Source: a virus (lineage: Duplodnaviria > Heunggongvirae > Uroviricota > Caudoviricetes). Taken from it: a stretch of DNA of 10,433 nucleotides. The stretch is taken from the IMG/VR virus record IMGVR_UViG_2698536657_000012, positions 1 through 10,433 of that record. One strand, 5' to 3'. Below, one piece after another: positions 1 through 10,433 of this stretch. Position 1 is the stretch's first letter. Each line of letters opens with the position of its first letter. The translations under genes and the position numbers were made by a program. The notes under the pieces were generated by a model, which was not told where the DNA came from, made no database searches, and saw only the letters and a program-made list of their open reading frames with translations.

Positions 1-6
1 GCATGC

Positions 7-252
7 TTACATCATCATGTCGCTGTCGGGTGTGGGTTCACCGCCATCTGAAGCACTCCCGTCACCCGCAATGCCTTCCGGCTCCGGAACAGCCGGTGCG
101 CCCAGCAGTTCATCCAGAATGGCATCCACTTCTGCATCAAGACGCGACTCAAGGTTCTGGCGGAGTTTCTGTTTCAGTGCGCTCAGGACTTCTTCAGAGC
201 GCAGGACTTCCTTCAATGCTTCAGCAGTGACCAGGGGTTTTACTTCTGACAT
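7..252 (-). CDS. Hypothetical small acidic protein, 82 aa from the ATG at 250-252 (MSEVKPLVTAEALKEV...); the ORF-track ORF extends to 414 but has no better start
   Basis: Complete ORF with TAA stop at 7-9; helix-like, non-repetitive composition, unlike the S/R-rich overlapping plus-strand ORFs; weak SD (GAGAAAA). Function not recognised. Confidence 0.4.
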   Translation of the reverse strand: MSEVKPLVTAEALKEVLRSEEVLSALKQKLRQNLESRLDAEVDAILDELLGAPAVPEPEGIAGDGSASDGGEPTPDSDMMM

Positions 253-277
253 AGGATTTTCTCGCTGAAAGGGGTTA

Positions 278-460
278 TTAAGGAGTAATGGGCTCTTCGG
301 GTTTGCTTCCGGCTGACTGACTGGCGCTGATTTTCTCTGCGGCCCTTTTATCAATCTGCCTGCGCCAGAAATCGCGCACTGCCCTGTACCCACCTGAAAG
401 AAGATACAGCACACAGACCGCCGTACAGAAGTACAGCATCACCTGATGAATAAATATCAT
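278..460 (-). CDS. Small predicted membrane protein, 60 aa: one N-terminal hydrophobic helix (IFIHQVMLYFCTAVCVLYLL) and a charged C-terminal tail
   Basis: ATG at 458-460, TAA stop at 278-280; strongly hydrophobic N-terminus followed by a basic/acidic tail; lies directly downstream of nanS-p in the same orientation. Confidence 0.4.
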   Translation of the reverse strand: MIFIHQVMLYFCTAVCVLYLLSGGYRAVRDFWRRQIDKRAAEKISASQSAGSKPEEPITP

Positions 461-478
461 AATTTCTTACCGTTATGG

Positions 479-508
479 TTGACAATGAGAACTGTTTTCA
501 TTTAAAAA
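479..508 (+). promoter_or_regulatory. Candidate sigma70 promoter on the plus strand: perfect -35 TTGACA (479-484), A/T-rich -10 region (TTTAAAAA, about 501-508)
   Basis: Consensus -35 hexamer with a 16-18 nt spacer to a weak -10; would start a plus-strand transcript about 80 nt upstream of the terminator at 558-594. Confidence 0.3.
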
Positions 509-557
509 ACCAATGTACGAAAGCATCTTTTCTTTATTTTCTCCATGGGTATTACCA

Positions 558-594
558 CCGCCAGCTTCCATTCCTGCCGCTGGCGGCTTTTTTT
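558..594 (+). terminator. Intrinsic-terminator-like hairpin (CCGCCAGC ... GCTGGCGG) followed by T7 on the plus strand
   Basis: 8-bp GC-rich stem with a ~13-nt loop, then TTTTTTT on the plus strand; on the minus strand it is preceded by A7 and not followed by a U-tract. It sits just 3' of the nanS-p stop codon (600-602). Confidence 0.5.
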
Positions 595-599
595 AGCAA

Positions 600-2558
600 T
601 TATGCGGCTGCTCCAGCTTTGTTTGCTTTAACTTCCACCGTATCAATAAGTACAGGGTAAGTTTCAGCAGTACCTGTAATATCCGTAATGACAAACCTGT
701 TGAGTTCATTAGCAGTATTGGCCCATTTCACCAGGTCAAACGCCTGTCCATCCACGCCATCAAACACCGGAGTAACATTAATGCTGTTACTGCCCTTAAA
801 TTTAAATGCAAGCGTATGCCAGTCATGGTCGAATGCGCCAAACGTGCCAAGTTCTTTTTGTTGATTACCTGTATGATGGTATGCAACATCAATACTGGCT
901 TTATCTGTCTGGACAAAGAAAGAACTCAGATAGCCTTCACCACCCTCACCCGGCCATTCCGCTATTCGCCAGTACAAACCAAAGGCATACTTGTTTCTGG
1001 TTGTTTCAAGATTGACGTTTTCAGGGATTTTAAACCGGACAGCAATTTCCCCGCCTTTTTCCAGTAACAGTTTTGCCTTGTCTGCAGCAATATCACAGTA
1101 CATTGACCAGGATTTCGCGCTGTTATTTTTCTCAATTCGCAGAGCTTTATTGCCGCTGTCATCAACCAGTGTGCGTCTGCCATCCATACCGTCCCAGCCA
1201 TAAGGTTTCAGCTGATTGTCCGAAGCTTTTTTGGCATCGTAGAGAATGACAGACTCCGAAGTGGCAACCGTATTTTCTTCATTATGAGCTTCAGAAGCTG
1301 GCGATGAAGAAGATGTTGGCGCCTCTTCCGGTGCTGTTACTTCTGTAATACCATTCACAAAGGCAGATGATTTACCTGCATAGGTTACAATTGCTGTTGC
1401 CAGTCGATCCGAAACGATACCTCGACGAGCCCATGAGCTAAAATGGCTATCTCTGTACTGTGACGTCCATGTTGTTGAACTATCACGCCATCTGGAGCCA
1501 TAATATCCAATAGCTTCAATATCCGGGTCTTCCTCGGGCTTATTGGTTGTAACATTTGCATTATTTTCATCCGTCATAAACGGAACAAAATAAATAGCCT
1601 TATCCGTTTTCCCTTTGTAACCACCGTACACAACTTCATATTGAGACGCGTATTTGGTTTTCCAGTAATACGTGGTATCGCCGCAAATCCAGGGGACTTT
1701 CGCAGCACTACCATATACGCATTGAGCATCATATTTCTCTAACTCAGTGCGGAAACCTTCAACCATTTTCAGGAAAAGTGCATTGTGTTCTGCATGTTTT
1801 CCGGCAGCCATATCTGCCTCACCCTGCATCCAGACAACGCCAAGAAATACGTTCTTTTTGTTTTTGTCTAATGCAGCTTTGGTTCTGGCAACCAGATCTT
1901 TATATAGAGGTGTCCCAAGCCCCCATTTTGATGATGCGTCGATTGCGCCAGAGGCTTCATAATACTGTCCTTCTGTTCCGGTACTAAAGCCTGATCCGCC
2001 ACGTCCACAAGGGACCAGCAGAATACCTGCATTAGCAGGGATAAATGGCAGTAGTTTCTTACCAATATGCAAACCCTGGCCAACACAACCGTATTCTGCA
2101 TCTTTAGCTTTGGGGTGTTTTAGCCTGGTCATATCTTCAACATCATGAAGACAATGGTCTGCCGGAATGATGTCGTTATATTTACAGGGAGTACCTCCCG
2201 GTGTCACCGTACTGCGACGCGCCAGCTGCTTAATACGCGGGTCCGGACGGTCATATGTCTCCGGCAGCGGAAGGCCTTCACCATATGCCATGCTGTTTGA
2301 CTGGCCAGCCAGCGTAATCACGTAGTAATACTCCGGGTCGCTGGTGGCGCTGATAACTGTGCCTTCTCCATCCGACGGCTTCACCACCACAGGTGTGGTG
2401 ACATCACCTTCCGCCGCAATGGCCTGCATCAGGGTATAAGGCGTGATGGCCACCGGGCTGCCAAATGGCTGCCACCCCTCCTTCAGTTTTTGAGTCAGTC
2501 GCTCCGCAAGGTCTGACGGCGACGCCGCCCTGACCACGTCATAGTGTTTAAATGCCAT
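600..2558 (-). CDS. nanS-p: Prophage-encoded sialate (9-O-acetyl-Neu5Ac) O-acetylesterase NanS-p: N-terminal DUF1737-like region, SGNH/SASA esterase core with GQSN motif, C-terminal carbohydrate-binding-like region
   Basis: 652-aa ORF with ATG at 2556-2558 and strong SD (GGGAGG); ITLAGQSNSMAYGEG esterase motif; N-terminus MAFKHYDVV typical of the family; position downstream of the tRNA/toxin locus as in Stx prophages. Confidence 0.88.
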   Translation of the reverse strand: MAFKHYDVVRAASPSDLAERLTQKLKEGWQPFGSPVAITPYTLMQAIAAEGDVTTPVVVKPSDGEGTVISATSDPEYYYVITLAGQSNSMAYGEGLPLPETYDRPDPRIKQLARRSTVTPGGTPCKYNDIIPADHCLHDVEDMTRLKHPKAKDAEYGCVGQGLHIGKKLLPFIPANAGILLVPCGRGGSGFSTGTEGQYYEASGAIDASSKWGLGTPLYKDLVARTKAALDKNKKNVFLGVVWMQGEADMAAGKHAEHNALFLKMVEGFRTELEKYDAQCVYGSAAKVPWICGDTTYYWKTKYASQYEVVYGGYKGKTDKAIYFVPFMTDENNANVTTNKPEEDPDIEAIGYYGSRWRDSSTTWTSQYRDSHFSSWARRGIVSDRLATAIVTYAGKSSAFVNGITEVTAPEEAPTSSSSPASEAHNEENTVATSESVILYDAKKASDNQLKPYGWDGMDGRRTLVDDSGNKALRIEKNNSAKSWSMYCDIAADKAKLLLEKGGEIAVRFKIPENVNLETTRNKYAFGLYWRIAEWPGEGGEGYLSSFFVQTDKASIDVAYHHTGNQQKELGTFGAFDHDWHTLAFKFKGSNSINVTPVFDGVDGQAFDLVKWANTANELNRFVITDITGTAETYPVLIDTVEVKANKAGAAA

Positions 2559-2755
2559 GAATCCTCCCGGTCGGGATAATGTTGTGAGTCAGATAAGGGG
2601 CGGGCTGAAGTCCGGAAGTTACAGGACAATGACAGAAGGAAGACTACAGCCCGCAATACGAAAAAGGCCGCGCAGTTGCGCAGAGTGATTACTGTCGGGT
2701 ATTATTCGCCAGCTGAAAAATTGATTACTTCACGTTTTGTTGTTTATTCCTTGCT

Positions 2756-2784
2756 GCCCGCATCTCACCATGCGGGCTTTTTTT
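2756..2784 (+). terminator. Plus-strand intrinsic terminator: GCCCGCAT-ctcacc-ATGCGGGC followed by TTTTTTT
   Basis: Perfect 8-bp stem, 6-nt loop, T7 run immediately 3' on the plus strand. Confidence 0.5.
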
Positions 2785-2788
2785 ATCC

Positions 2789-2815
2789 ATAAGAAAGCCC
2801 CTCCGGAGAGGGGCT
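2789..2815 (-). terminator. Minus-strand intrinsic terminator T1: AGCCCCTC-(4-nt loop)-GAGGGGCT followed by UUCUUAU; marks the end of repeat copy 1
   Basis: Perfect 8-bp GC-rich stem; U-rich tract only on the minus strand. Confidence 0.5.
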
Positions 2816-3045
2816 GGAGTAGCGCTATGTACCGTTCATTGCATGATGCCGGGTGCCTCCCGGTGAGTTCAGCCCGGTGCCACCGAACCCGCGTCATTCT
2901 CGCTAACGATCATCAGAGACCATACCGTACACCAGCCGCCCCTCCGCACAGGGGGATTCATCATGCAGAAATTTTTTAACAAATTCTCAGTCGGGAAGAC
3001 AACCTTCAACTGACTGAATTGTGAGCAACATAGCATTTAACGGGG
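2796..3045. repeat. Copy 1 of a tandemly duplicated ~250-nt structured non-coding element (period ~487 bp)
   Basis: Shares with copy 2: AAAGCCCCTCCGGAGAGGGGCTG (23/23); TGCCGGGTGCCTCCCGGTGAGTTCAG (26/26); GAACCCGC; GCCCCTCCGC(A/T)CAGGGGGATTCA(T/C)CATGC; TTTTAACAAA; CTGAATTGTGAG ... CGGGG. The same order and spacing are preserved. Confidence 0.7.
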
Positions 3046-3059
3046 AACCTGTTTTCTGC

Positions 3060-3090
3060 AGTAAAAAGGCCCACCGGAGCGGACGGGCCT
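3060..3090 (-). terminator. Minus-strand terminator-like hairpin (AGGCCC ... GGGCCT) followed by UUUUUAC
   Basis: 6-bp outer stem plus inner CCG/CGG pairs; T5 on the minus strand; lies in the spacer between the two repeat copies. Confidence 0.35.
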
Positions 3091-3275
3091 GGAAGGATAG
3101 CGGTCATGTGATGCCGGTTTCCCGGTAACTCAGCACCGGTATCTGAGTCAACGTTTTCTCTACTGGGTCATTTCCGATACGCCCTGCCTGCTGACAGGCT
3201 TTCATCACATCTGAAAATATAGCACCCTGACTGATACTGTAGTACCCAAGGTTCCAGAAACTGTGATGTATCCGG

Positions 3276-3303
3276 CACAGAAAAGCCCCTCCGGAGAGGG
3301 GCT
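3276..3303 (-). terminator. Minus-strand intrinsic terminator T2: same AGCCCCTC/GAGGGGCT hairpin as T1, followed by UUUUCUGUG; marks the end of repeat copy 2
   Basis: Identical 8-bp stem to copy 1; U-rich tract on the minus strand only. Confidence 0.5.
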
Positions 3304-3530
3304 GACGCTGCGTATCTGTATCATCATGCGCATGGTGCCGGGTGCCTCCCGGTGAGTTCAGTATCAGCACCTGAACCCGCACAGAAAGGATAAGGGATGT
3401 AACCAAACACCTGTCGCTGATATGCCCCTCCGCTCAGGGGGATTCACCATGCCAGTTTCTTTTAACAAACTCCCCGCAAATCAGACAACTGTCAACCGTC
3501 TGAATTGTGAGACATTTAAAATTTTCGGGG
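3284..3530. repeat. Copy 2 of the tandemly duplicated ~250-nt structured non-coding element
   Basis: See copy 1; conserved blocks are identical in order and offset by 486-489 nt; intervening sequence has diverged. Confidence 0.7.
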
Positions 3531-3581
3531 CAACAGGAAGACAATCATCACGACACCGGCAACCAGCGACCGGCACCAGAT

Positions 3582-4517
3582 TTAACGTATGTGCACACAA
3601 CCTGAACCGGCATCAAAAAACAAACCGTGCACTGACAGAAAACGGGAAACCTCCGTCCGCTGATCATCACTCATTAAGGACCACACAAAGGCGTTATGCT
3701 CATCTTCAAGTTTCCGTCTTCTTGTTTGCCTTACAAGCAACTCAGCCGTCACCTGTACAATGTCAATGACCTCCTTCTCTTCAGCAATGTACGGCCTGTT
3801 CCAGTTGTCTGTGTTAATCTTCTCCGTCACCGGCGCTGACTTTTTGCAAGTTTCCCCATTAAACCCGACGCCATAAACAACAACATCATCGCTTTGCTTT
3901 TCGTTATCAATAATGACGAATAATACAGAAACCGATGTATCAGCGAACCCGCCTGAAATCTGAACCAACTCAACAACGCGGTTGCCAAAATACTGACGCA
4001 TTGCCAGCTCACCACGCCTGTAACCAACCCCGGGAAAGCACAAAAAAAATGAAAATCTTGCCTTCATGCTCGCCAGAACATAAAACGCGTCATCCAGAAC
4101 ACCGGAGGTCTTTTTATAAGGCATCATCGCTGAAATCTTCTCCCTGATATCCGCGCTCTGTGCTTTGTACTGTAGCGAAAAAGGCGGATTCATGATGACA
4201 CAATCGAACGTGTCCGTGTCACTGACATCATCGATGGCGTTGAAGAAATTTTCATTGACCGTCTTCACTGTGGCATCCGGGAAATTATCCGGGATATGCA
4301 CCAACGGAGAGGCCTGTATATCCACAGCATACAGACTTCCCACCGTGAGAAACTGCTCCAGTTGCCCGGAGCCACACGCACCATCAAAAATACTCAGGGG
4401 CAGATCACCACAATATTCCCGCACTTTTTCAGCGACAAACCGACGCAAAGGAACGGACGTGATGTACTCTGCGTATTTTCTGGCGACATCGCGATTATTG
4501 GACTCCTGAAAAACCAT
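3582..4517 (-). CDS. Putative orphan gamma-class N6-adenine (amino) DNA methyltransferase-like protein (311 aa from ATG at 4517; 331 aa if the GTG at 4577 is used)
   Basis: Motif I FDGACGSGQL followed about 65 aa later by motif IV NPPF (order I then IV = gamma class); no adjacent restriction gene; neither candidate start has a clear SD. Target (DNA versus RNA) cannot be told from sequence alone. Confidence 0.6.
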   Translation of the reverse strand: MVFQESNNRDVARKYAEYITSVPLRRFVAEKVREYCGDLPLSIFDGACGSGQLEQFLTVGSLYAVDIQASPLVHIPDNFPDATVKTVNENFFNAIDDVSDTDTFDCVIMNPPFSLQYKAQSADIREKISAMMPYKKTSGVLDDAFYVLASMKARFSFFLCFPGVGYRRGELAMRQYFGNRVVELVQISGGFADTSVSVLFVIIDNEKQSDDVVVYGVGFNGETCKKSAPVTEKINTDNWNRPYIAEEKEVIDIVQVTAELLVRQTRRRKLEDEHNAFVWSLMSDDQRTEVSRFLSVHGLFFDAGSGCVHIR

Positions 4518-4602
4518 TTGTGAAAGGCTCTGTGGTTGATATGCGCCGGGCGTGGCGCGGAGGCAAAAAAGGCCCACAAAAGCGAGCCAGGAAAAATAAG
4601 TG

Positions 4603-4679
4603 TGGTGCGTTGTACTGGATTCGAACCCGTGACCGATTGCTTAGAAGGCAATTGCTCTGTCCGGCTGAGCTAACAACGC
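4603..4679 (-). tRNA. argO: tRNA-Arg (anticodon UCU)
   Basis: 77 nt; acceptor stem GCGTTGT/ACAACGC, discriminator A and encoded CCA; D-arm GCTC...GAGC; anticodon loop CTTCTAA; T-loop TTCGAAT. Gene symbol assigned from the ileZ-argN-argO order known in Stx prophages. Confidence 0.85.
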
Positions 4680-4692
4680 AGTGTACAGATAA

Positions 4693-4769
4693 TGGACCGC
4701 CATCGAGGACTCGAACCCCGCGCAACCAGCTTCGAAGGCTGGCGCTCTATCCCGATGAGCTAATGGCGG
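4693..4769 (-). tRNA. argN: tRNA-Arg (anticodon UCG)
   Basis: 77 nt; acceptor CCGCCAT/ATGGCGG with encoded CCA; anticodon stem CCAGC/GCTGG with loop CTTCGAA; T-arm CGGGG-TTCGAGT-CCTCG. Confidence 0.8.
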
Positions 4770-4776
4770 TATGTGA

Positions 4777-4852
4777 TGGTGGCCCTTGCTGGATTTGAAC
4801 CAGCGACCTGGCGATTATGAGTCGCTCGCTCTCACCACTGAGCTAAAGGGCC
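4777..4852 (-). tRNA. ileZ: tRNA with CAU anticodon, ileX-like (tRNA-Ile2, lysidine type) rather than Met
   Basis: 76 nt; GGCCCTT acceptor stem, anticodon loop CTCATAA, T-loop TTCAAAT, encoded CCA; overall close to E. coli ileX as recalled from memory. Confidence 0.8.
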
Positions 4853-4861
4853 GGGCGCAGG

Positions 4862-4890
4862 ATAATAACGGTACGTAACTAATCCTGCAA
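4862..4890 (-). promoter_or_regulatory. Candidate sigma70 promoter for the tRNA cluster: -35 TTGCAG, 17-nt spacer, -10 TATTAT, about 8 nt upstream of the tRNA-Ile 5' end
   Basis: Read on the minus strand: TTGCAGgattagttacgtaccgtTATTATcctgcgcc followed by the tRNA; -10 matches 5/6. Confidence 0.45.
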
Positions 4891-4892
4891 TA

Positions 4893-5951
4893 TCATCCGT
4901 TCTGACTGGCTAAATCCTGAACTTCCCTGACCGTCTGCTCAAAACGTTCAGTCTCCAGCTCAACGCCAGTTGCACGACGCCCCAGCGCCATCGCTGCTTT
5001 GACTGTCGAACCCGACCCCATGAAAAAATCTGCAACCAGGTCACCCGGACGACTGCTCGCGCTGATTATCTGCTGCAGCATTTCTGCCGGTTTTTCGCAC
5101 GGATGTTTCCCGGGATAGTACTGCACCGGTTTATGCGTCCACACATCGGTGTACGGCACCTGCGCCGTCACACCGAAATACCGCCGCAGATGCTTATATT
5201 CACTCTGCAGTTCCGTATAGTGTCGGTTCAGTTCACTGTATGTGCTGACCAGTTGGTGATGTGGCTTTTCCAGTTCTCCGCGCTGATGCTTCTCTTCTGC
5301 CACCCGGGCAAACAGCGCCTGTAATTTCAGATAATCGCTTTCGTCCGGTAGCTGCCACTGACTGGCACTGAACCAGTGCGACACCATGTTTTTCTTTCCT
5401 GTGGCATCAGCAATCTGTTTTGCCGTTATCCCCAGGGCAGCACGTGCATCACGAAAGTAAGCAATCAGCGGGGCCATCACATGCTGTTTCAGTGCCCTGC
5501 CCTTCGCCTCATACCCGGCATCTTTCGGACGATACGGCCCCTGATAATGTTCCGCGAACAGAATGCGCTCTGTGGCGGGGAAATACGCCCTCAGGCTTTC
5601 CTTGTTGCACCCGTTCCAGCGTCCGGACGGCTTCGCCCAGATAATATGGTTCAGCACACTGAAGCGTTCACGCATCATGATTTCAATGTCAGATGCCAGG
5701 CGATGGCCACAGAACAGGTAAAGACTTCCGGCAGGTTTCAGCACCCGCCAGAACTGCGCCAGACACTGGTCCAGCCACTTCAGGTAATCATCGTCGCCCT
5801 TCCACTGGTTATCCCAGCCCTCAGGCTTCACTTTAAAGTACGGCGGGTCCGTGACTATCAGGTCAACAGAATTTTCGGGTAACGACCGGATAAATTCCAG
5901 GCAGTCGGCGTTGATTAACTCACAACTGGATATTTTTACAGTATTAAGCAT
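4893..5951 (-). CDS. DNA methyltransferase, beta-class N6-adenine/N4-cytosine family (PF01555-like), 352 aa
   Basis: N-terminal motif IV (SVDLIVTDPPYF) and C-terminal motif I (DFFMGSGSTVKAA): the order IV then I is the beta-class hallmark. No adjacent endonuclease ORF. Confidence 0.88.
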   Translation of the reverse strand: MLNTVKISSCELINADCLEFIRSLPENSVDLIVTDPPYFKVKPEGWDNQWKGDDDYLKWLDQCLAQFWRVLKPAGSLYLFCGHRLASDIEIMMRERFSVLNHIIWAKPSGRWNGCNKESLRAYFPATERILFAEHYQGPYRPKDAGYEAKGRALKQHVMAPLIAYFRDARAALGITAKQIADATGKKNMVSHWFSASQWQLPDESDYLKLQALFARVAEEKHQRGELEKPHHQLVSTYSELNRHYTELQSEYKHLRRYFGVTAQVPYTDVWTHKPVQYYPGKHPCEKPAEMLQQIISASSRPGDLVADFFMGSGSTVKAAMALGRRATGVELETERFEQTVREVQDLASQNG

Positions 5952-6084
5952 GGATCATTAAGCCTGTCTCTGATAGGCTCATTCTGCTTTTGCGCAAAGC
6001 AGTGGGCCTGAGGTTTGCTTGTGATCCGGACGCATGAGCAGATGGCTGGTGAGTGCCCCTAACACCCACCAGCCGCCCATTTAC

Positions 6085-6115
6085 CACAAATAAAAAAGCC
6101 TTCAGGACTGAAGGC
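6085..6115 (-). terminator. Minus-strand intrinsic terminator: GCCTTCA-GGAC-TGAAGGC followed by UUUUUUAUUUG; overlaps the stop codon of the wHTH ORF
   Basis: 7-8 bp stem and a long U-tract on the minus strand. Confidence 0.55.
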
Positions 6116-6299
6116 GTCTGTAACAACCGAACTGATAGTCTGCCAGACCCGCCATAACAAGCTGGGTCAGTATTAACTGGCAGCGTTCACGTGAAAGATA
6201 AGTATTCTGCGCAATCTCCCCGACTGTCGCCGGTTCGGTGGCACTTAATTCATTAAACACCACTCTGGCGGTTTCTGTCATATCCTGCTGTTTCAGCAT
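6102..6299 (-). CDS. Small (about 65 aa) winged-helix/HTH-like protein, putative DNA-binding regulator (MLKQQDMTETARVVFNELSATEPATVGEIAQNTYLSRERCQLILTQLVMAGL...)
   Basis: ORF-track ORF 6102-6335 has a TTG at its 5' end; the first ATG has an SD (AAGGGAAAAAG). The TVGEIAQ...LSRERCQLILTQL segment looks like an HTH recognition unit. Family not identified. Confidence 0.5.
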   Translation of the reverse strand: MLKQQDMTETARVVFNELSATEPATVGEIAQNTYLSRERCQLILTQLVMAGLADYQFGCYRRLQS

Positions 6300-6420
6300 G
6301 TCTTTTTCCCTTTTCCGGTTAACGTGACACACCAATAACTCTTGTCAAAAAAGCCAGCAAGCTGAAAGACCGGTATTCACCACCACCAGCGCGTTTACTG
6401 TACTGACGAGATTTTCGGAC

Positions 6421-6451
6421 ATAAAAAAAACCACCTGGCGGTGGTTTTTTC
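6421..6451 (-). terminator. Strong intrinsic terminator, tR'-like: CCACC-GCCA-GGTGG followed by U8 on the minus strand (flanked by A8 and T6, so the hairpin is bidirectional)
   Basis: Perfect GC-rich stem with long A/T runs on both sides; located about 60-70 nt downstream of the candidate late promoter. Confidence 0.7.
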
Positions 6452-6493
6452 TTACTTTGCCATCGCGTACAAAATCGGCAAAATATCAGATTT

Positions 6494-6528
6494 ATACGAA
6501 ACATACGCGATTTAATTGACTTTTGCAA
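6494..6528 (-). promoter_or_regulatory. Candidate late promoter (pR'-like): -35 TTGCAA, 17-nt spacer, -10 TATGTT, read on the minus strand; overlaps the last codons of the Q-like ORF
   Basis: Hexamers each 4/6 to consensus with ideal spacing; position relative to the upstream ORF and the downstream terminator fits the lambdoid Q-pR'-tR' layout. Confidence 0.4.
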
Positions 6529-7201
6529 TATCTCGTCGTGAAAAGGTCGCTTTTTGTTGCGCTCTTATTTTCACGGAGCAAATCAAGGATTCTCTATCGA
6601 GGCGCTTAAAAATATCGCACATCTCACGCCAGTAGTTCGCATAATTATGGCTCCAGTTATCAGGCTTAACTCCACACAGTCTGGCAAGCTCCTGTCTCTG
6701 GTAGACCTCACACCCGGTAACCCATCCTCTGACATCCTGTGCCGCCAGCCAGATCAACTTCTTCACACGCTCCAGCGTTTTCACTGCAATTTTTCTGGAG
6801 CCGGACTGAGTTTTAAATTCACTCCACACCCACTGTGTTATGGTGACCTGATCTTCCCAGCAAACATTTCCACTGTAGCACCACAGTAACCACGCCTTCT
6901 GATGTTCTTCCAGTTCCAGAACGGCACGCCGCCACGATGATGTTGCAAACTCAACCGGACTGACCAGAGCAATTGACGTCCCTTTCGCCAGTGATTGTTT
7001 GCCCGGGATCGGTGGATTATCCCGCGTGATCATTTTTCCGGTTACCTCATCGCGGTAACGAATTTTTTTACGTCTGTAACGCCCTGTATCGAACAGGGCA
7101 TTTTCCTGCCAGGCTTCCAGCTGGCCTTTTGTCGACCCACTGAGATCCGCAGTGGCAATCATGAGTTGCTCACGAACAAACTGTAAATACTGGCTATTCA
7201 T
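6512..7201 (-). CDS. Q-like late antiterminator candidate, 229 aa from ATG at 7199-7201 (functional call is positional only)
   Basis: The ORF itself is solid; its start overlaps the rusA stop (ATGAATAG). It lies between rusA and the pR'/tR'-like module, where lambdoid phages encode Q, but no lambda-type Cys4 zinc motif was recognised; a Roi-like or other nin-region protein is possible. Confidence 0.55.
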   Translation of the reverse strand: MNSQYLQFVREQLMIATADLSGSTKGQLEAWQENALFDTGRYRRKKIRYRDEVTGKMITRDNPPIPGKQSLAKGTSIALVSPVEFATSSWRRAVLELEEHQKAWLLWCYSGNVCWEDQVTITQWVWSEFKTQSGSRKIAVKTLERVKKLIWLAAQDVRGWVTGCEVYQRQELARLCGVKPDNWSHNYANYWREMCDIFKRLDRESLICSVKIRAQQKATFSRRDIAKVN

Positions 7202-7556
7202 GCACACCCACCTCTGTAATTCTTATCTCCAGCCGTCCACCAGATACTGGCTGGCCACGTACAATATTGATTTCATCAAACTGCTCATCGTCCATTAACA
7301 TTCCCGCATGCGTCAGCGCATCCAGCGGCGCTTTCAGAATATTGTCCAGGTCACGACGACGCTTATCCGGTGGCTCTGCAATAATTTTTATTGCCAGCCG
7401 TCCGGACAGTCTTAATTTCAGCCGCTGCTGGCGAACAATAAGCGCCACTGCACGGCGATAACGCTCCCCGGCTTTTGATACAAAATATGTGCTGCCACGG
7501 CGTCGCCAGTAAGTGTTCACCGTCGGCGGGTAAGGTAAAACCAAATCTATGAGCAT
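7194..7556 (-). CDS. rusA: Holliday-junction resolvase RusA (crossover junction endodeoxyribonuclease), 120 aa
   Basis: ATG with strong SD (AGAGGTGA); conserved RusA blocks (PPDKRRRDLDNILKAPLDALTHAGMLMDDEQ... GGRLEIRITE) match E. coli RusA as recalled from memory. Confidence 0.88.
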   Translation of the reverse strand: MLIDLVLPYPPTVNTYWRRRGSTYFVSKAGERYRRAVALIVRQQRLKLRLSGRLAIKIIAEPPDKRRRDLDNILKAPLDALTHAGMLMDDEQFDEINIVRGQPVSGGRLEIRITEVGVHE

Positions 7557-7568
7557 CAGTCACCTCTT

Positions 7569-8618
7569 TTACCCGAGCACGCCAGTCGCAAAGGCGTGAT
7601 CAAGAAAACGAAAAATTAACTCAATCTGAGAGCCGTACTTTTTCTCAAACTCCAGCGGGTCTGCATGAAGTTCGTTGTGGTGCTCCCGGCACAACGGTAG
7701 CGTGAAAATATCGTGGGCCTTTGTTCCCATTCCCCCCTGACCATGGCCAATCAGGTGATGCGGATCGTCGGCTGGCTTACCACAACACGCGCACGGCTGT
7801 GTCTTAACCCAGCGCGTGTATTTCTCATTAACCCAACGGCGACGTTTAGGCCGCCTCATGAACGATTCAGGAGACTCCGGATCAACGGCGATACTGACAA
7901 CCGTTTTTTTCTGTGGTGGATTTTGTTGCTGGTGGACGTGAAGTGGCAGCGCAATATTTTTTGTGCGCTGCTTCAGTATGCTGATGGCTGTCTGTTCTCC
8001 CGGTACGATGTCACTCTCACGGTATACGGAGCGGATTTTTCCCACCGGTAATCCCAGTGAACGACGCAATACAGACTCCGGAAGCGCATCAGCCACCTGA
8101 TTGCAGACCGCCCACCAGCATAACTCTGCCAGCGACAGTTCCCGCTCCTGTGTGCCATTCATTGCGTGACGTATGACATCAATCATCCAGGCTGCCAGAT
8201 TCTGCTGAGCAAGTTGATCGAGTGATTCTGATGTCTGGTCGCGCTGCTGGTTGTCACAGTGCCAGCACAACACCATCGCGCCGGTACCGTAACGGTGAAT
8301 GACGGTTTCGCTGTGATGATAATCGCCATGTGGCCACTGGCAGGATTTCACGTGACGTAATAACCAGTCAGACAGTGCACCTGCACCCCCCGCAGCACGA
8401 ATCACCCGTTCGTTGCTGAAAAATGGCAGTAATGTTTTATCCTCTGCCAGCGACTGTCGAACGGCGGGAACGACTCCGGACGGCAGACCGCGCATGTTTT
8501 TCGGTTCCGGCTCCACCAGTATTCTGCCGTTATGGAATGCTGACATTGATTCACGGCCCGGCTTTAGGAGCACCATCCCGAGTTCTGGCACCAGAACAGG
8601 TCGAAGTAATACCCGCAC
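7569..8618 (-). CDS. DUF968-family prophage protein (YdfU-like), 349 aa, with a C-terminal Cys/His-rich HNH/NinG-like motif
   Basis: GTG start preceded by a perfect SD (GGAGGtaacGTG) that overlaps the upstream ORF's TAA stop; C-terminus PCACCGKPADDPHHLIGHGQGG...LCREHHNELHAD. Confidence 0.75.
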   Translation of the reverse strand: MRVLLRPVLVPELGMVLLKPGRESMSAFHNGRILVEPEPKNMRGLPSGVVPAVRQSLAEDKTLLPFFSNERVIRAAGGAGALSDWLLRHVKSCQWPHGDYHHSETVIHRYGTGAMVLCWHCDNQQRDQTSESLDQLAQQNLAAWMIDVIRHAMNGTQERELSLAELCWWAVCNQVADALPESVLRRSLGLPVGKIRSVYRESDIVPGEQTAISILKQRTKNIALPLHVHQQQNPPQKKTVVSIAVDPESPESFMRRPKRRRWVNEKYTRWVKTQPCACCGKPADDPHHLIGHGQGGMGTKAHDIFTLPLCREHHNELHADPLEFEKKYGSQIELIFRFLDHAFATGVLG

Positions 8619-8619
8619 G

Positions 8620-8898
8620 TTACCTCCAGATGCGCTGCTGGAATGTGCGGGACGGACGCGGTGGGCGTTCGGAATAAGGGAGCCTGACGGAGATTATCCA
8701 GTGGCGACGGTCAAGACTGAGAGCTTTCTCAAACTCATACCCGCGTCTGCGGTAGTTCTGAATCAACCATTCGGCCTGTTCTTCAGTGCATGGGGCATGC
8801 TGGAACCAGTCAGATTTGAATGCATGAGAACGCCGCCCGTGCCTGCTGGCAGGGGCGGCGAAGTTATCCGAATTGTGTAATTTTGTATCGTGCGCCAT
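8620..8898 (-). CDS. Hypothetical nin-region protein, 92 aa from ATG at 8896-8898 (ORF-track version starts at a TTG at 8979)
   Basis: Its stop is translationally coupled to the DUF968 gene start. No motif recognised; positionally comparable to the small genes next to ydfU in Qin-like prophages. Confidence 0.45.
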   Translation of the reverse strand: MAHDTKLHNSDNFAAPASRHGRRSHAFKSDWFQHAPCTEEQAEWLIQNYRRRGYEFEKALSLDRRHWIISVRLPYSERPPRPSRTFQQRIWR

Positions 8899-8978
8899 CG
8901 GTTGTCTCTGCTGGCGCAGCAGGTGCCAGTTGTTCAGGCTGGCGTGCGGATTGTAAACCAGAATACGGGGGTAACACA

Positions 8979-8998
8979 AAGCCCGCCTCTGTGGGCTT
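8979..8998. other. GC-rich hairpin (AAGCCC-8 nt-GGGCTT) between the hicAB operon and the nin-region genes; possible weak terminator
   Basis: 6-bp stem; flanks are only moderately T-rich on either strand; coincides with the compositional boundary of the AT-rich moron. Confidence 0.3.
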
Positions 8999-9003
8999 GA
9001 TTA

Positions 9004-9438
9004 TTAAGCCGAGCCCGGCACATACCAAGGGAAATAAATATCACTTAACGACGTGTGTTTGAGAACAGAGTCCACCGCCAATTTCAACGTCAACGACATG
9101 AAATTCTCAAAATACCATGAATTTTCTACAAAGAACTTTTCATCGATCGCCCCTCCATTAATGATATCAAAGTCCGTAATCAGCTCCATCTTTAACTCAA
9201 AAGATGGTTCTTCATCACCGACAGGCTCTCCCTCTCTATCAGGATACCCTTTTATCGATGGCGAAAACCCAATCCGAAACCAACTGGTACCATCATCATC
9301 ACGCCCCGAAGCAAATTTAAGTTCCTCAATCGAGACCTTAAAAAAACCTCCATCATCACTAGTGTTATCCCTGAAACTACTGGAAACTATATCGAAACCA
9401 GCATACTTAATATTTTTTAACATCAGTGACGTATCCAT
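9004..9438 (-). CDS. Hypothetical acidic protein, 144 aa, third gene of the hicA-hicB operon
   Basis: ATG at 9436-9438 lies 16 nt upstream of the hicB stop (overlapping genes); SD-like GAGG about 10 nt upstream; D/E-rich; AT-rich codon usage like hicAB. No recognisable domain. Confidence 0.6.
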   Translation of the reverse strand: MDTSLMLKNIKYAGFDIVSSSFRDNTSDDGGFFKVSIEELKFASGRDDDGTSWFRIGFSPSIKGYPDREGEPVGDEEPSFELKMELITDFDIINGGAIDEKFFVENSWYFENFMSLTLKLAVDSVLKHTSLSDIYFPWYVPGSA

Positions 9439-9899
9439 CGCTCACTAACCTCTTTCCTTTTTGTTCTTACTGAAGATGGAACAACATAATTAAGAAGAAA
9501 TACGCCATCCCAAACAAGTGTATCTGCCGTTTCTTTATTTTCGGGATGAGAATGAACTTCTTTTTTACCTGCAATCTTTTCTTCAATGGCTTTACGCACA
9601 TAATCATTAAGCGTCGTCTTATCCATCATTGCAGCCAAAAACGCTTTCTTATGAAGATCGCGACCTATTCTGATGTTAAAAGTACCACTCATTGGTTTAT
9701 CAGGAGATTTACCCAACTGCTTGCATGTATCGAGGTAATCTGTAACAGCCTCTTCAAAAGCTGCCCTTAACCCATCCAGTGTTTCCGCTTCGTAGGTTAC
9801 AACATCGTTTACACACTGAATTTTCCCATGAAGTATGTTATCTTCAAGAGAAATCTCAATGCTACCAAAATAACCTTTATAACTCAGCACATTACTCAT
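9423..9899 (-). CDS. hicB: HicB-family antitoxin (COG4226-like N-terminal domain fused to a C-terminal ribbon-helix-helix-like DNA-binding segment), 158 aa from ATG at 9897-9899
   Basis: YKGYFGSIE...EDNILHGKI...YEAETLDGLRAAFEEAVTDYLDTCKQLGK..P.KP.SGTFNIRIGRDLHKKA matches the conserved HicB pattern as recalled from memory; its ATG overlaps the hicA stop (ATGAGTAA). Confidence 0.78.
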   Translation of the reverse strand: MSNVLSYKGYFGSIEISLEDNILHGKIQCVNDVVTYEAETLDGLRAAFEEAVTDYLDTCKQLGKSPDKPMSGTFNIRIGRDLHKKAFLAAMMDKTTLNDYVRKAIEEKIAGKKEVHSHPENKETADTLVWDGVFLLNYVVPSSVRTKRKEVSERWIRH

Positions 9900-10140
9900 A
9901 ACTATCAATCTCATCCAAAAGATTTTTCACTTCTTTAAGCACATATCCTTTAACAATATTGCCAGGATGTGGGCAATGAAAAGCCACAAGCCTTCCATTA
10001 CCATTGGCAAACTTCCTTCTTGAGCCTGAGCCGGTAAGCATTTCGAAACCATAATGCCCAAGCAACGTCACGAGTTCATCCCATGTAAAATCCTTTGGAA
10101 GCTGATTCAGACGCCCCCTCAACTTCTCTTTTTTGCTCAT
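9892..10140 (-). CDS. hicA: HicA-family mRNA-interferase toxin (YcfA-like), 82 aa
   Basis: Small basic protein, WDELVTLLGHYGFEM...GSGSRRKF...FHCPHPGNIVKGYVLKEV, consistent with the HicA fold motif; located immediately upstream of and overlapping hicB in the canonical toxin-first order. Confidence 0.75.
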   Translation of the reverse strand: MSKKEKLRGRLNQLPKDFTWDELVTLLGHYGFEMLTGSGSRRKFANGNGRLVAFHCPHPGNIVKGYVLKEVKNLLDEIDSYE

Positions 10141-10168
10141 TTAAAGTATATCCCTTCCCCCACCAATA

Positions 10169-10187
10169 GCAACTAATAATCAGTTGC
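10169..10187. promoter_or_regulatory. Inverted repeat GCAACT-n7-AGTTGC upstream of hicA; candidate operator for the RHH-type HicB
   Basis: Perfect 6-bp arms separated by 7 nt, about 30 nt upstream of the hicA start, within an A/T-rich putative promoter region. Confidence 0.4.
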
Positions 10188-10433
10188 AAACTCAGCGCGA
10201 TAAAGAAGCATAAGAATCCTGCACCTAATACATAACTTAAGAAAACACGTGTGAGCATGAAAATGCTACAATAATGTTTAAATCACTTACCAGTAAGGTT
10301 AAGTGCGGGTGCGTTGAGGATGCCTGACACATCAGAGGTAGCGGGAGATTACTCTCCCGCCTGGTCACTCTTACTCATCAGGTTCGTAGACTGTGAAAAC
10401 AGCGACCTCCGTCTGGCCGGTTCGGATTCGTAC

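Follow-up and report, generated by a model that had tools for sequence, protein, structure and literature searches.

An orphan adenine methylase gene and a conserved array of predicted STnc100 small RNA genes at the stx cargo slot of a lambdoid prophage

In Stx2 phages, the interval between stx2B and the sialate esterase gene is already published as a site of small RNA (sRNA) genes (PMC12370729, PMC12711010, bioRxiv 10.64898/2026.05.13.724894). The STnc100 family was located 75 nt downstream of the stx2 operon (PMC12370729), where it overlaps EcOnc27/sRNA103, an Hfq-binding sRNA encoded just downstream of stx2B (PMC12711010). PasD, a structural relative of STnc100 whose Hfq dependence was established by Northern blot and RIL-seq, is encoded directly upstream of the sialate esterase gene (PMC8550237; bioRxiv 10.64898/2026.05.13.724894). 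Prophages are also known to carry orphan adenine methylases. Those of the M.EcoGII type stay silent in the lysogen, and it is presumed that induction activates them (PMC5778455), while Hia5, Hin1523 and Nma1821 are non-specific adenine methylases, Dam-like with DPPY at about residue 194, that replace mom in Mu-like prophages (PMC3299994). We describe here a locus where the two subjects meet, in a window of 10,433 nucleotides (the whole stretch of DNA analysed, positions 1 to 10,433 of IMG/VR virus record IMGVR_UViG_2698536657_000012). The source is a stx-negative, Stx2-phage-like lambdoid prophage of E. coli, and the region of interest, 2559-4602, lies within its Q-dependent late operon.

This region consists of two independent modules. 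The variable cargo is 3522-4564 only, 1,043 bp with a single gene, which encodes an orphan adenine methylase. The remainder, 2559-3521, is conserved backbone and neither cargo nor scar; it is predicted to contain two STnc100 sRNA genes and one diverged unit. The first-pass annotation had treated 2559-4602 together as the contents of the stx position; a real cargo cassette is indeed present, but that span also takes in conserved backbone. We think it likely that the cargo gene specifies a late, Q-antiterminated methylase that would protect progeny DNA from restriction, and that it is accompanied by a conserved STnc100 sRNA module. What the locus presents is a well-known layout in a rare form, not a new kind of arrangement: layout, slot and sRNA family were already known, and what is new here is the exact position of the slot borders, together with the points made below on the methylase.

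On the minus strand, the order is DUF968, RusA, Q, a terminator, a small open reading frame (ORF), a methylase gene, three tRNA genes, the ORF 3582-4577, a gap and nanS-p. Three Stx2 prophages, ASU11, 1720a-02 and the Stx2a prophage of strain OkiPb01697 (comparison loci L002, L010 and L023), have the identical order, with stx2AB between the last tRNA-Arg and nanS-p, which bears out the earlier identification of this place as the stx slot of an Stx-phage-like late operon. The likeness extends over Q, the terminator, the small ORF, a 352-residue methylase, tRNA-Ile/Arg/Arg, a hairpin, the cargo, STnc100, nanS-p, DUF1378, DUF826 and the holin, and in OkiPb01697 the DUF968, RusA and Q types are also common to the window. 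Two differences stand out: the slot holds a methylase gene in the window and stx2AB in the Stx2 phages, and the Stx2 phages examined have a single STnc100 unit, whereas the window has two full units and a diverged one. No stx ORF was found anywhere in the window, so that, judged by stxAB, it does not represent an Stx-converting phage.

The borders of the cargo can be drawn to the base by comparison with a prophage of strain 729_xx_1_3_yolk (L022), in which the slot is empty. There, the hairpin that follows tRNA-Arg, GGCTCGCTTTTGCGGGC with its T-run, is directly joined to AAATGTCTCACAATTCAG, the beginning of the non-coding array. The STnc100 leader, which forms the far border of the slot interval reckoned from the tRNA-Arg hairpin, begins TCACAATTCAG. 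Relative to this reference, the window carries an insertion that runs from 4564 down to 3522, with T-runs at both junctions, and is made up of a 47-nt leader, the ORF and a 60-nt trailer. The features of the slot are the following:

4565-4588, minus strand: hairpin and T6, terminator-like, after tRNA-Arg; upstream edge of the slot (terminator scan)
4518-4564, minus strand: 47-nt cargo leader with no usable Shine-Dalgarno sequence (alignment, sequence of locus L019, duplex energies)
3582-4517, minus strand: orphan gamma-class N6-adenine DNA methylase, 311 amino acids, the cargo gene
3522-3581, minus strand: 60-nt cargo trailer; downstream edge of the slot at the T-run 3518-3521 (comparison with L022 and L003)

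In relatives, the slot contains stx2AB, TerB plus DUF3927, or nothing, and the hairpin 4565-4588 is kept in the Stx2, TerB, empty-slot and methylase variants. The 47-nt leader also precedes the TerB cargo of strain ABU 83972 (L003) and a methylase allele of 79% identity (L019). The latter is flanked by the same three tRNA genes and belongs to a phage with a different Q type, in which nanS-p comes straight after the methylase gene, with 226 nt between them and no STnc100 unit.

A further methylase allele, of 61% identity, with a GTG start and a good AGGAGG, is found in a contig of GCA_018047205.1 (L020, region 1-830). It is preceded by a short ORF whose N-terminus looks KilA-N-like, and the motif "hairpin, T-run, ACC(T/C)GCGC..." stands ahead of both genes. 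This recurrence suggests that the cargo genes of the slot may be modular cassettes bounded by terminator-plus-leader repeats.

The sequence argues for ATG 4517 as the start of the cargo gene, giving 311 amino acids, and not for the annotated GTG 4577, which gives 331. The 20 extra codons of the RefSeq version are backbone DNA common to Stx2, TerB and empty-slot phages, the GTG codon lies inside the hairpin stem 4571-4588, and all 25 aligned homologues begin at the methionine of 4517 or no more than two residues away. The longer form was rejected on these grounds; the corrected start codon is new here, and the RefSeq start is probably 20 codons early.

The protein belongs to the family phrog_6380 ("DNA methyltransferase"; E 1.9e-79, residues 20-314 of the 331-residue ORF against positions 7-350 of a 382-position profile). 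It passes the Pfam model N6_Mtase (PF02384) marginally, with 21.5 bits for a cut-off of 20.4, and most homologues have a precomputed match to this model. A search of 5.8 billion proteins returned 596 relatives, with lengths of 212 to 332 amino acids among the 120 matches listed; the methylase is therefore a full-length member of a compact family, and not the fragment of a larger gene that it might have been. In alignments of 26 and 66 family members, there is no or almost no variation at motif X (AEYIT), motif I (FDGAxGSGQLE) and motif IV (NPPF). The FDGACGSG and NPPF sequences on which the first-pass annotation had based its methylase assignment occupy residues 44-51 and 110-113 of the 311-residue protein, in these invariant columns. 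The order, motif I before motif IV, is that of the gamma class, and the proposed check against methyltransferase families has upheld the assignment: this is a real gamma-class adenine methylase.

The AlphaFold2 model of the protein (pLDDT 93.9) has the catalytic-domain fold of a gamma-class N6-adenine methyltransferase, of the HsdM-like kind, and the best relatives in both sequence and fold are Type I M subunits. The family profile matches the M protein of EcoR124II with an E value of 1.1e-16; a second stretch, profile positions 233-273 against residues 474-514 of the EcoR124II M chain (its C-terminal helix), has an i-E of 62 and is not significant alone. Unlike HsdM, however, the cargo methylase is about 200 residues shorter, aligns only to HsdM residues ~196-514, lacks the HsdM N-terminal domain and has no hsdS or hsdR gene nearby. 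RefSeq already names the gene a SAM-dependent DNA methyltransferase. The label "type I restriction-modification system subunit M", used in RefSeq NZ_CP027586.1, was rejected, the protein scoring 25.3 bits with TIGR00497 (HsdM) against a cut-off of 242.75. PADLOC returned weak matches only (mad2, E 2.6e-7).

Behind the catalytic core, which extends to about residue 204, the chain has only a three-strand element, a loop in which one Trp is invariant, and two helices, 253-281 and 284-296. Past the core, the AlphaFold2 model contains no target-recognition domain of normal size, and there is no partner to supply one: no hsdS-like neighbour was found here or at the homologue loci examined. The absence of a restriction partner, noted from the outset, was confirmed, no restriction or specificity gene standing beside the ORF. 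Within an uncharacterised family of very small HsdM-like phage methylases that have no recognisable recognition domain, the cargo represents a rare allele; its identification as such is new here, and nothing on the family was found in the literature on HsdM-like orphan phage methylases.

Comparison with the described orphan methylases leads to the same picture of a distinct family. Like M.EcoGII and M.EcoGI, the cargo enzyme is an orphan prophage adenine methylase and may be their functional analogue. Those enzymes, however, are of the beta class, with DPPY before FxGxG, whereas the cargo enzyme is gamma and shares no detectable homology with them beyond the fold. Hia5, Hin1523 and Nma1821 resemble it in being small methylases at the variable anti-restriction or cargo position of a phage. 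Membership in the Hia5/Hin1523 family was ruled out, since those proteins are Dam-like (alpha) with DPPY, while the NPPF of the window protein comes after motif I.

The cassette was found in 12 of the 5,426 complete E. coli genomes, always in this slot and always at least 99.3% identical, and in none of the sequenced phages of the collection. Matches were obtained by tblastn in phages of Streptococcus, Fusobacterium and Mannheimia. Homologues in temperate phages of these three genera and of Providencia have no recurring neighbour, and no restriction or specificity gene stands beside those of a Providencia lambdoid prophage and an uncultured siphovirus-like phage.

The other module, between the cargo and nanS-p, had been described as about a kilobase without credible coding capacity, and this was correct as far as proteins are concerned: the gap 2559-3581 has only short ORFs with no Pfam identity. 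The Rfam model of STnc100 (RF02076, gathering threshold 47 bits) indicates that it is RNA-coding:

2785-2995, minus strand: STnc100 unit, proximal copy, ending in terminator 2796-2815 (RF02076, 168 bits, model 1-206)
3061-3234, minus strand: diverged STnc100-like unit, ending in terminator 3067-3090 (RF02076, 28.5 bits, E 4.6e-4 in a 1-kb search)
3275-3481, minus strand: STnc100 unit, distal copy, ending in terminator 3284-3303 (RF02076, 134.9 bits, model 1-206)
2730-2785, plus strand: candidate convergent small RNA at the AsxR/AgvB position, hairpin 2756-2777 and T7 (terminator scan)

Both full units pass the threshold; the proximal one is the copy kept by Stx2 phages downstream of stx2B. The middle unit falls below it and is not a member. 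It keeps the long-range helix and is possibly PasD-like. Each of the three units ends in a GC-rich hairpin followed by a T-run, which accounts for the multiple hairpins noticed earlier. Terminator-like hairpins number 14 in 2400-6600, against 4.2 +/- 2.3 in shuffled sequences, and five of them are on the minus strand inside the gap. The tandem repeat also noticed there is real, but not of short period: Tandem Repeats Finder found none, and the repeat consists of two copies of the ~486-bp sRNA unit (2938-3048 against 3424-3534, 72% identity, with shorter repeat families at the same spacing).

The single-sequence folding z-scores of the units are unimpressive (-1.4 to -2.7), and STnc100 membership therefore rests on the covariance model and on covariation. 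Among 14 STnc100 copies, from E. coli phages, Kosakonia, Pantoea and Enterobacter, compensatory changes are found at 6 of 28 pairs, and in the long-range helix, by which the multi-helix core is closed, two pairs alternate between A-U and G-C in seven sequences against seven. The middle unit has a compensatory change of its own, its hairpin CCUGUC/GGCAGG becoming UCUGCC/GGCGGA in strain EC29. Four short ORFs, 3104-3406 (-), 2730-2897 (-), 2737-2979 (+) and 3422-3769 (+), match PHROG families 23557, 35554, 24488 and 27294, all tiny and of unknown function. A protein-coding gap was nevertheless rejected: the short ORFs overlie the RNA units, and the sole divergent copy available keeps the structure and not the codons. 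These four families appear to derive from hypothetical ORFs over STnc100 DNA and probably do not represent proteins; we regard them as artefacts of annotation.

The array is not tied to any particular cargo. From 3521 down to nanS-p, the window is collinear with the TerB prophage of ABU 83972 and with the empty-slot prophage, with 99% identity over the middle 251 bases; in other strains, identity over the entire array is 88-90%. The number of STnc100 units is independent of what the slot contains:

Methylase slot (this window): 2 full and 1 diverged STnc100 units
TerB and DUF3927 slot (L003): 2 full and 1 diverged units
Empty slot (L022): 2 full and 1 diverged units
Degraded prophage with DUF3927 only (L021): 2 full and 1 diverged units
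stx2AB slot (L002, L010, L023): 1 unit
Slot with the 79% methylase allele (L019): 0 units

Of the 5,426 complete E. coli genomes, 353 have at least 80% of the array and 2,711 have some part of it. Thus, the kilobase is not the unusual feature for which it had been taken, being a known STnc100 family at its published position. The proposal of an RNA-based cargo was right about RNA and wrong about cargo, the region being collinear with TerB and empty-slot prophages. The units resemble STnc100, EcOnc27/sRNA103 and PasD in their position, in their terminator-ended architecture and in the covarying long-range helix; they differ in forming an array with a third, diverged unit.

The plus-strand candidate 2730-2785 runs towards the proximal STnc100 unit and meets it at its 3' end. 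Rfam AsxR matches the equivalent place in L003 and L018. The sequence variant present in the window is that of Stx2 phages ASU11 and 1720a-02, and it has no match to an Rfam family in the 1-kb search. Identity with AsxR/AgvB was rejected, only architecture and position being alike, and the candidate may be an undescribed gene of the anti-sRNA type. In five loci outside E. coli (L013-L017, from Kosakonia, Enterobacter and a soil proteobacterial metagenome-assembled genome), an STnc560 match follows STnc100 on the same strand at a distance of ~1 kb, a pairing that is conserved.

The backbone that surrounds the slot and the array comprises the following features:

7569-8618, minus strand: DUF968 protein
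7194-7556, minus strand: RusA
6512-7201, minus strand: late antiterminator Q, 229 amino acids from ATG 7201 (PF06323 Phage_antiter_Q, E 7.8e-84)
6422-6442, minus strand: tR'-like intrinsic terminator, hairpin 6430-6442 and T-run, just downstream of Q (terminator scan)
Between the Q terminator and the 352-residue methylase gene, minus strand: small ORF (phrog_331)
4893-5951, minus strand: backbone beta-class DNA adenine methylase, M.EcoGI/GII-like, 352 amino acids, with N-terminal DPPY and C-terminal FxGxG (PF01555, E 7e-44)
4603-4852, minus strand: tRNA cluster, CAT anticodon, Arg(tcg) and Arg(tct) (ARAGORN, Rfam tRNA matches, RefSeq annotation of L001)
600-2558, minus strand: nanS-p sialate O-acetylesterase, the first protein gene past the slot and the array (SASA, DUF1737 and DUF6645)

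The mechanical ORF of Q reaches GTG 7207, and RefSeq has the 229-residue form in a prophage of the same type (L001, NZ_CP045712.1, from strain FHI_NMBU_11, which carries the cassette). The role of the terminator 6422-6442 as tR' is inferred from its position. The tRNA gene 4777-4852 (-) was called tRNA-Met (CAT anticodon) by ARAGORN and tRNA-Ile by RefSeq, a conflict that fits what we take to be an ileZ-type, lysidine-modified tRNA, as known from Stx phages. The protein encoded by 4893-5951 shares 97% identity with the enzyme of phage 1720a-02, which is very similar to the non-specific M.EcoGII (PMC5778455). The late operon of the window therefore encodes two adenine methylases of different classes. 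In NZ_CP045712.1 (L001 2046-2981), a third methylase gene (N6_N4_Mtase, E 3.9e-33) lies among the lysis genes, making three methylases in the late region of that prophage.

Other differences among these prophages concern the neighbourhood. The window has a HicA/HicB toxin-antitoxin pair at its early-side end (9423-10140, minus strand). This end has no match in the 12 complete genomes with the cassette, which cover at most 87% of the window, and the window therefore comes from a further mosaic variant. The nanS-p/DUF1378 intergenic region (519-594, plus strand) matches Esr41 weakly, with 26 bits where the threshold is 102; PasA/PasC have been placed in this intergenic region (bioRxiv 10.64898/2026.05.13.724894). 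The degraded prophage (L021 2136-2471) and the Stx2a prophage of OkiPb01697 (L023 3290-3613) both have iraM, an anti-adapter gene, or a pseudogene of it, on the opposite (plus) strand between the slot/STnc100 region and nanS-p; it is not present in the window.

How the cargo gene would be expressed can be approached from its surroundings. A scan of 2400-6600 detected no sigma-70-like site on the minus strand, and the gene lies behind both the Q-proximal terminator and the second conserved hairpin with its T6. Lacking a promoter-like site and preceded by tR' and then by another terminator hairpin, the methylase gene would be transcribed essentially only after induction, when Q-modified RNA polymerase would read through into it. 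The first-pass annotation had reported no clear ribosome-binding site, and rightly so: the predicted pairing with the anti-Shine-Dalgarno sequence upstream of ATG 4517 amounts to just -2.1 kcal/mol, against -7 to -10.6 kcal/mol for nanS-p, Q, RusA and DUF968 (-10.3 kcal/mol for nanS-p). Because this Shine-Dalgarno sequence is very weak, the protein should be poorly translated. The M.EcoGII-like gene 4893-5951 also has a weak one (-3.3 kcal/mol), and both methylases would be made only after induction, in small amounts. In the mechanism that we propose, the cargo methylase would modify adenines of the replicating phage DNA before packaging, complementing the M.EcoGII-like methylase encoded just upstream, and methylated progeny would survive restriction in the next host. 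The STnc100 units would yield Hfq-binding sRNAs, and their terminators would probably also keep unmodified polymerase off nanS-p and the lysis genes. This scheme draws on Q-dependent late transcription in lambdoid and Stx phages and on the argument made for silent methylases (PMC5778455).

Several observations weigh against a late anti-restriction methylase accompanied by an sRNA module. No methylome, expression or activity data were found for the methylase or any close homologue. The protein has no recognisable target-recognition domain. Should the M.EcoGII-like enzyme encoded upstream be truly non-specific, there would seem to be little need for another adenine methylase. A trans-acting role of STnc100 would be carried over from relatives and not from these copies. 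The cassette is rare, nearly clonal and absent from the sequenced phages of the collection, and it could be a recent, neutral passenger; its near-absent Shine-Dalgarno sequence means that the protein could be barely made, whereas the 61% allele has a good AGGAGG. A rival reading makes the methylase a silent or nearly silent passenger, captured by recombination at a hot cargo slot, barely translated and at present useless to the phage. We hold this to be unlikely. Nothing is missing from the ORF, which has its full length and all the residues that are invariant in the family, and the 79% allele, in the same slot and behind the same leader in a different phage backbone, implies persistence. Moreover, since both methylases of the operon have weak Shine-Dalgarno sequences, low translation may be the norm for such enzymes. 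It is more improbable still that the enzyme acts as an epigenetic regulator of host or prophage genes in the lysogen, an idea to which we give very little credence. Some homologues do stand alone, on the strand opposite to the structural genes, and the title of one preprint reportedly has an orphan phage methylase altering host gene expression; here, however, the gene has no promoter-like site upstream, two terminators separate it from pR', and its Shine-Dalgarno sequence is weak.

The missing recognition domain opens other possibilities. The methylase might be a mini-HsdM that borrows the host Type I HsdS through its C-terminal helices, and would then copy host methylation onto phage DNA or titrate HsdS from the restriction complex. 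Its closest relatives in sequence and fold are Type I M subunits, and a pair of long helices near its C-terminus (253-296) lines up, in order, with the C-terminal helix of EcoR124II M. That C-terminal match is not significant alone, though, and a protein lacking the N-terminal HsdM domain, with no linked hsdS at any homologue examined, makes docking markedly improbable for this enzyme. A broader conjecture, doubtful but somewhat less so, is that the whole family of ~600 proteins is a minimal HsdM-like methylase without a DNA-reading domain, which would either dock on HsdS via the C-terminal helices or form a third, gamma-class, non-specific lineage beside M.EcoGII (beta) and Hia5 (alpha). Weak matches to MTS (PF05175), PrmC, METTL5 and TrmM-type enzymes, the adjacent phage tRNA genes and, again, the want of a DNA-recognition domain would suit an enzyme acting on tRNA or rRNA and not on DNA. 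Context and the ranking of its relatives disfavour this substrate, and we regard it as barely credible. For the STnc100 units, a mainly cis role, as a stack of terminators or insulators or as RNA-stability elements of the late transcript, is possible, if on the unlikely side, and it is compatible with the late methylase and sRNA module that we favour. A strong hairpin with a T-run closes every unit, the minus strand has no consensus promoter, and the number of copies, from 0 to 3, is not linked to the cargo; yet the covarying multi-helix core upstream of the terminator is not needed for termination, and members of the family are discrete, Hfq-bound RNAs (PMC12711010, PMC8550237). Finally, the suggestion that the kilobase is the scar of a cargo exchange, or a degraded remnant of stx or other cargo, found no support and is refuted: blastn and tblastx comparisons of stx2AB and terB/DUF3927 with 2559-4602 gave chance matches only (E >= 0.016), and the region, besides its collinearity with the TerB and empty-slot prophages, has a match to a curated RNA family.

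The interest of this otherwise ordinary locus lies in the specificity of the cargo enzyme. If docking on HsdS were true, the phage would copy whatever Type I pattern its current host uses. The "non-coding kilobase" of these prophages should be annotated as sRNA genes and not as hypothetical proteins, and the base-exact borders of the stx cargo slot should help in tracing the movement of the Shiga toxin genes.

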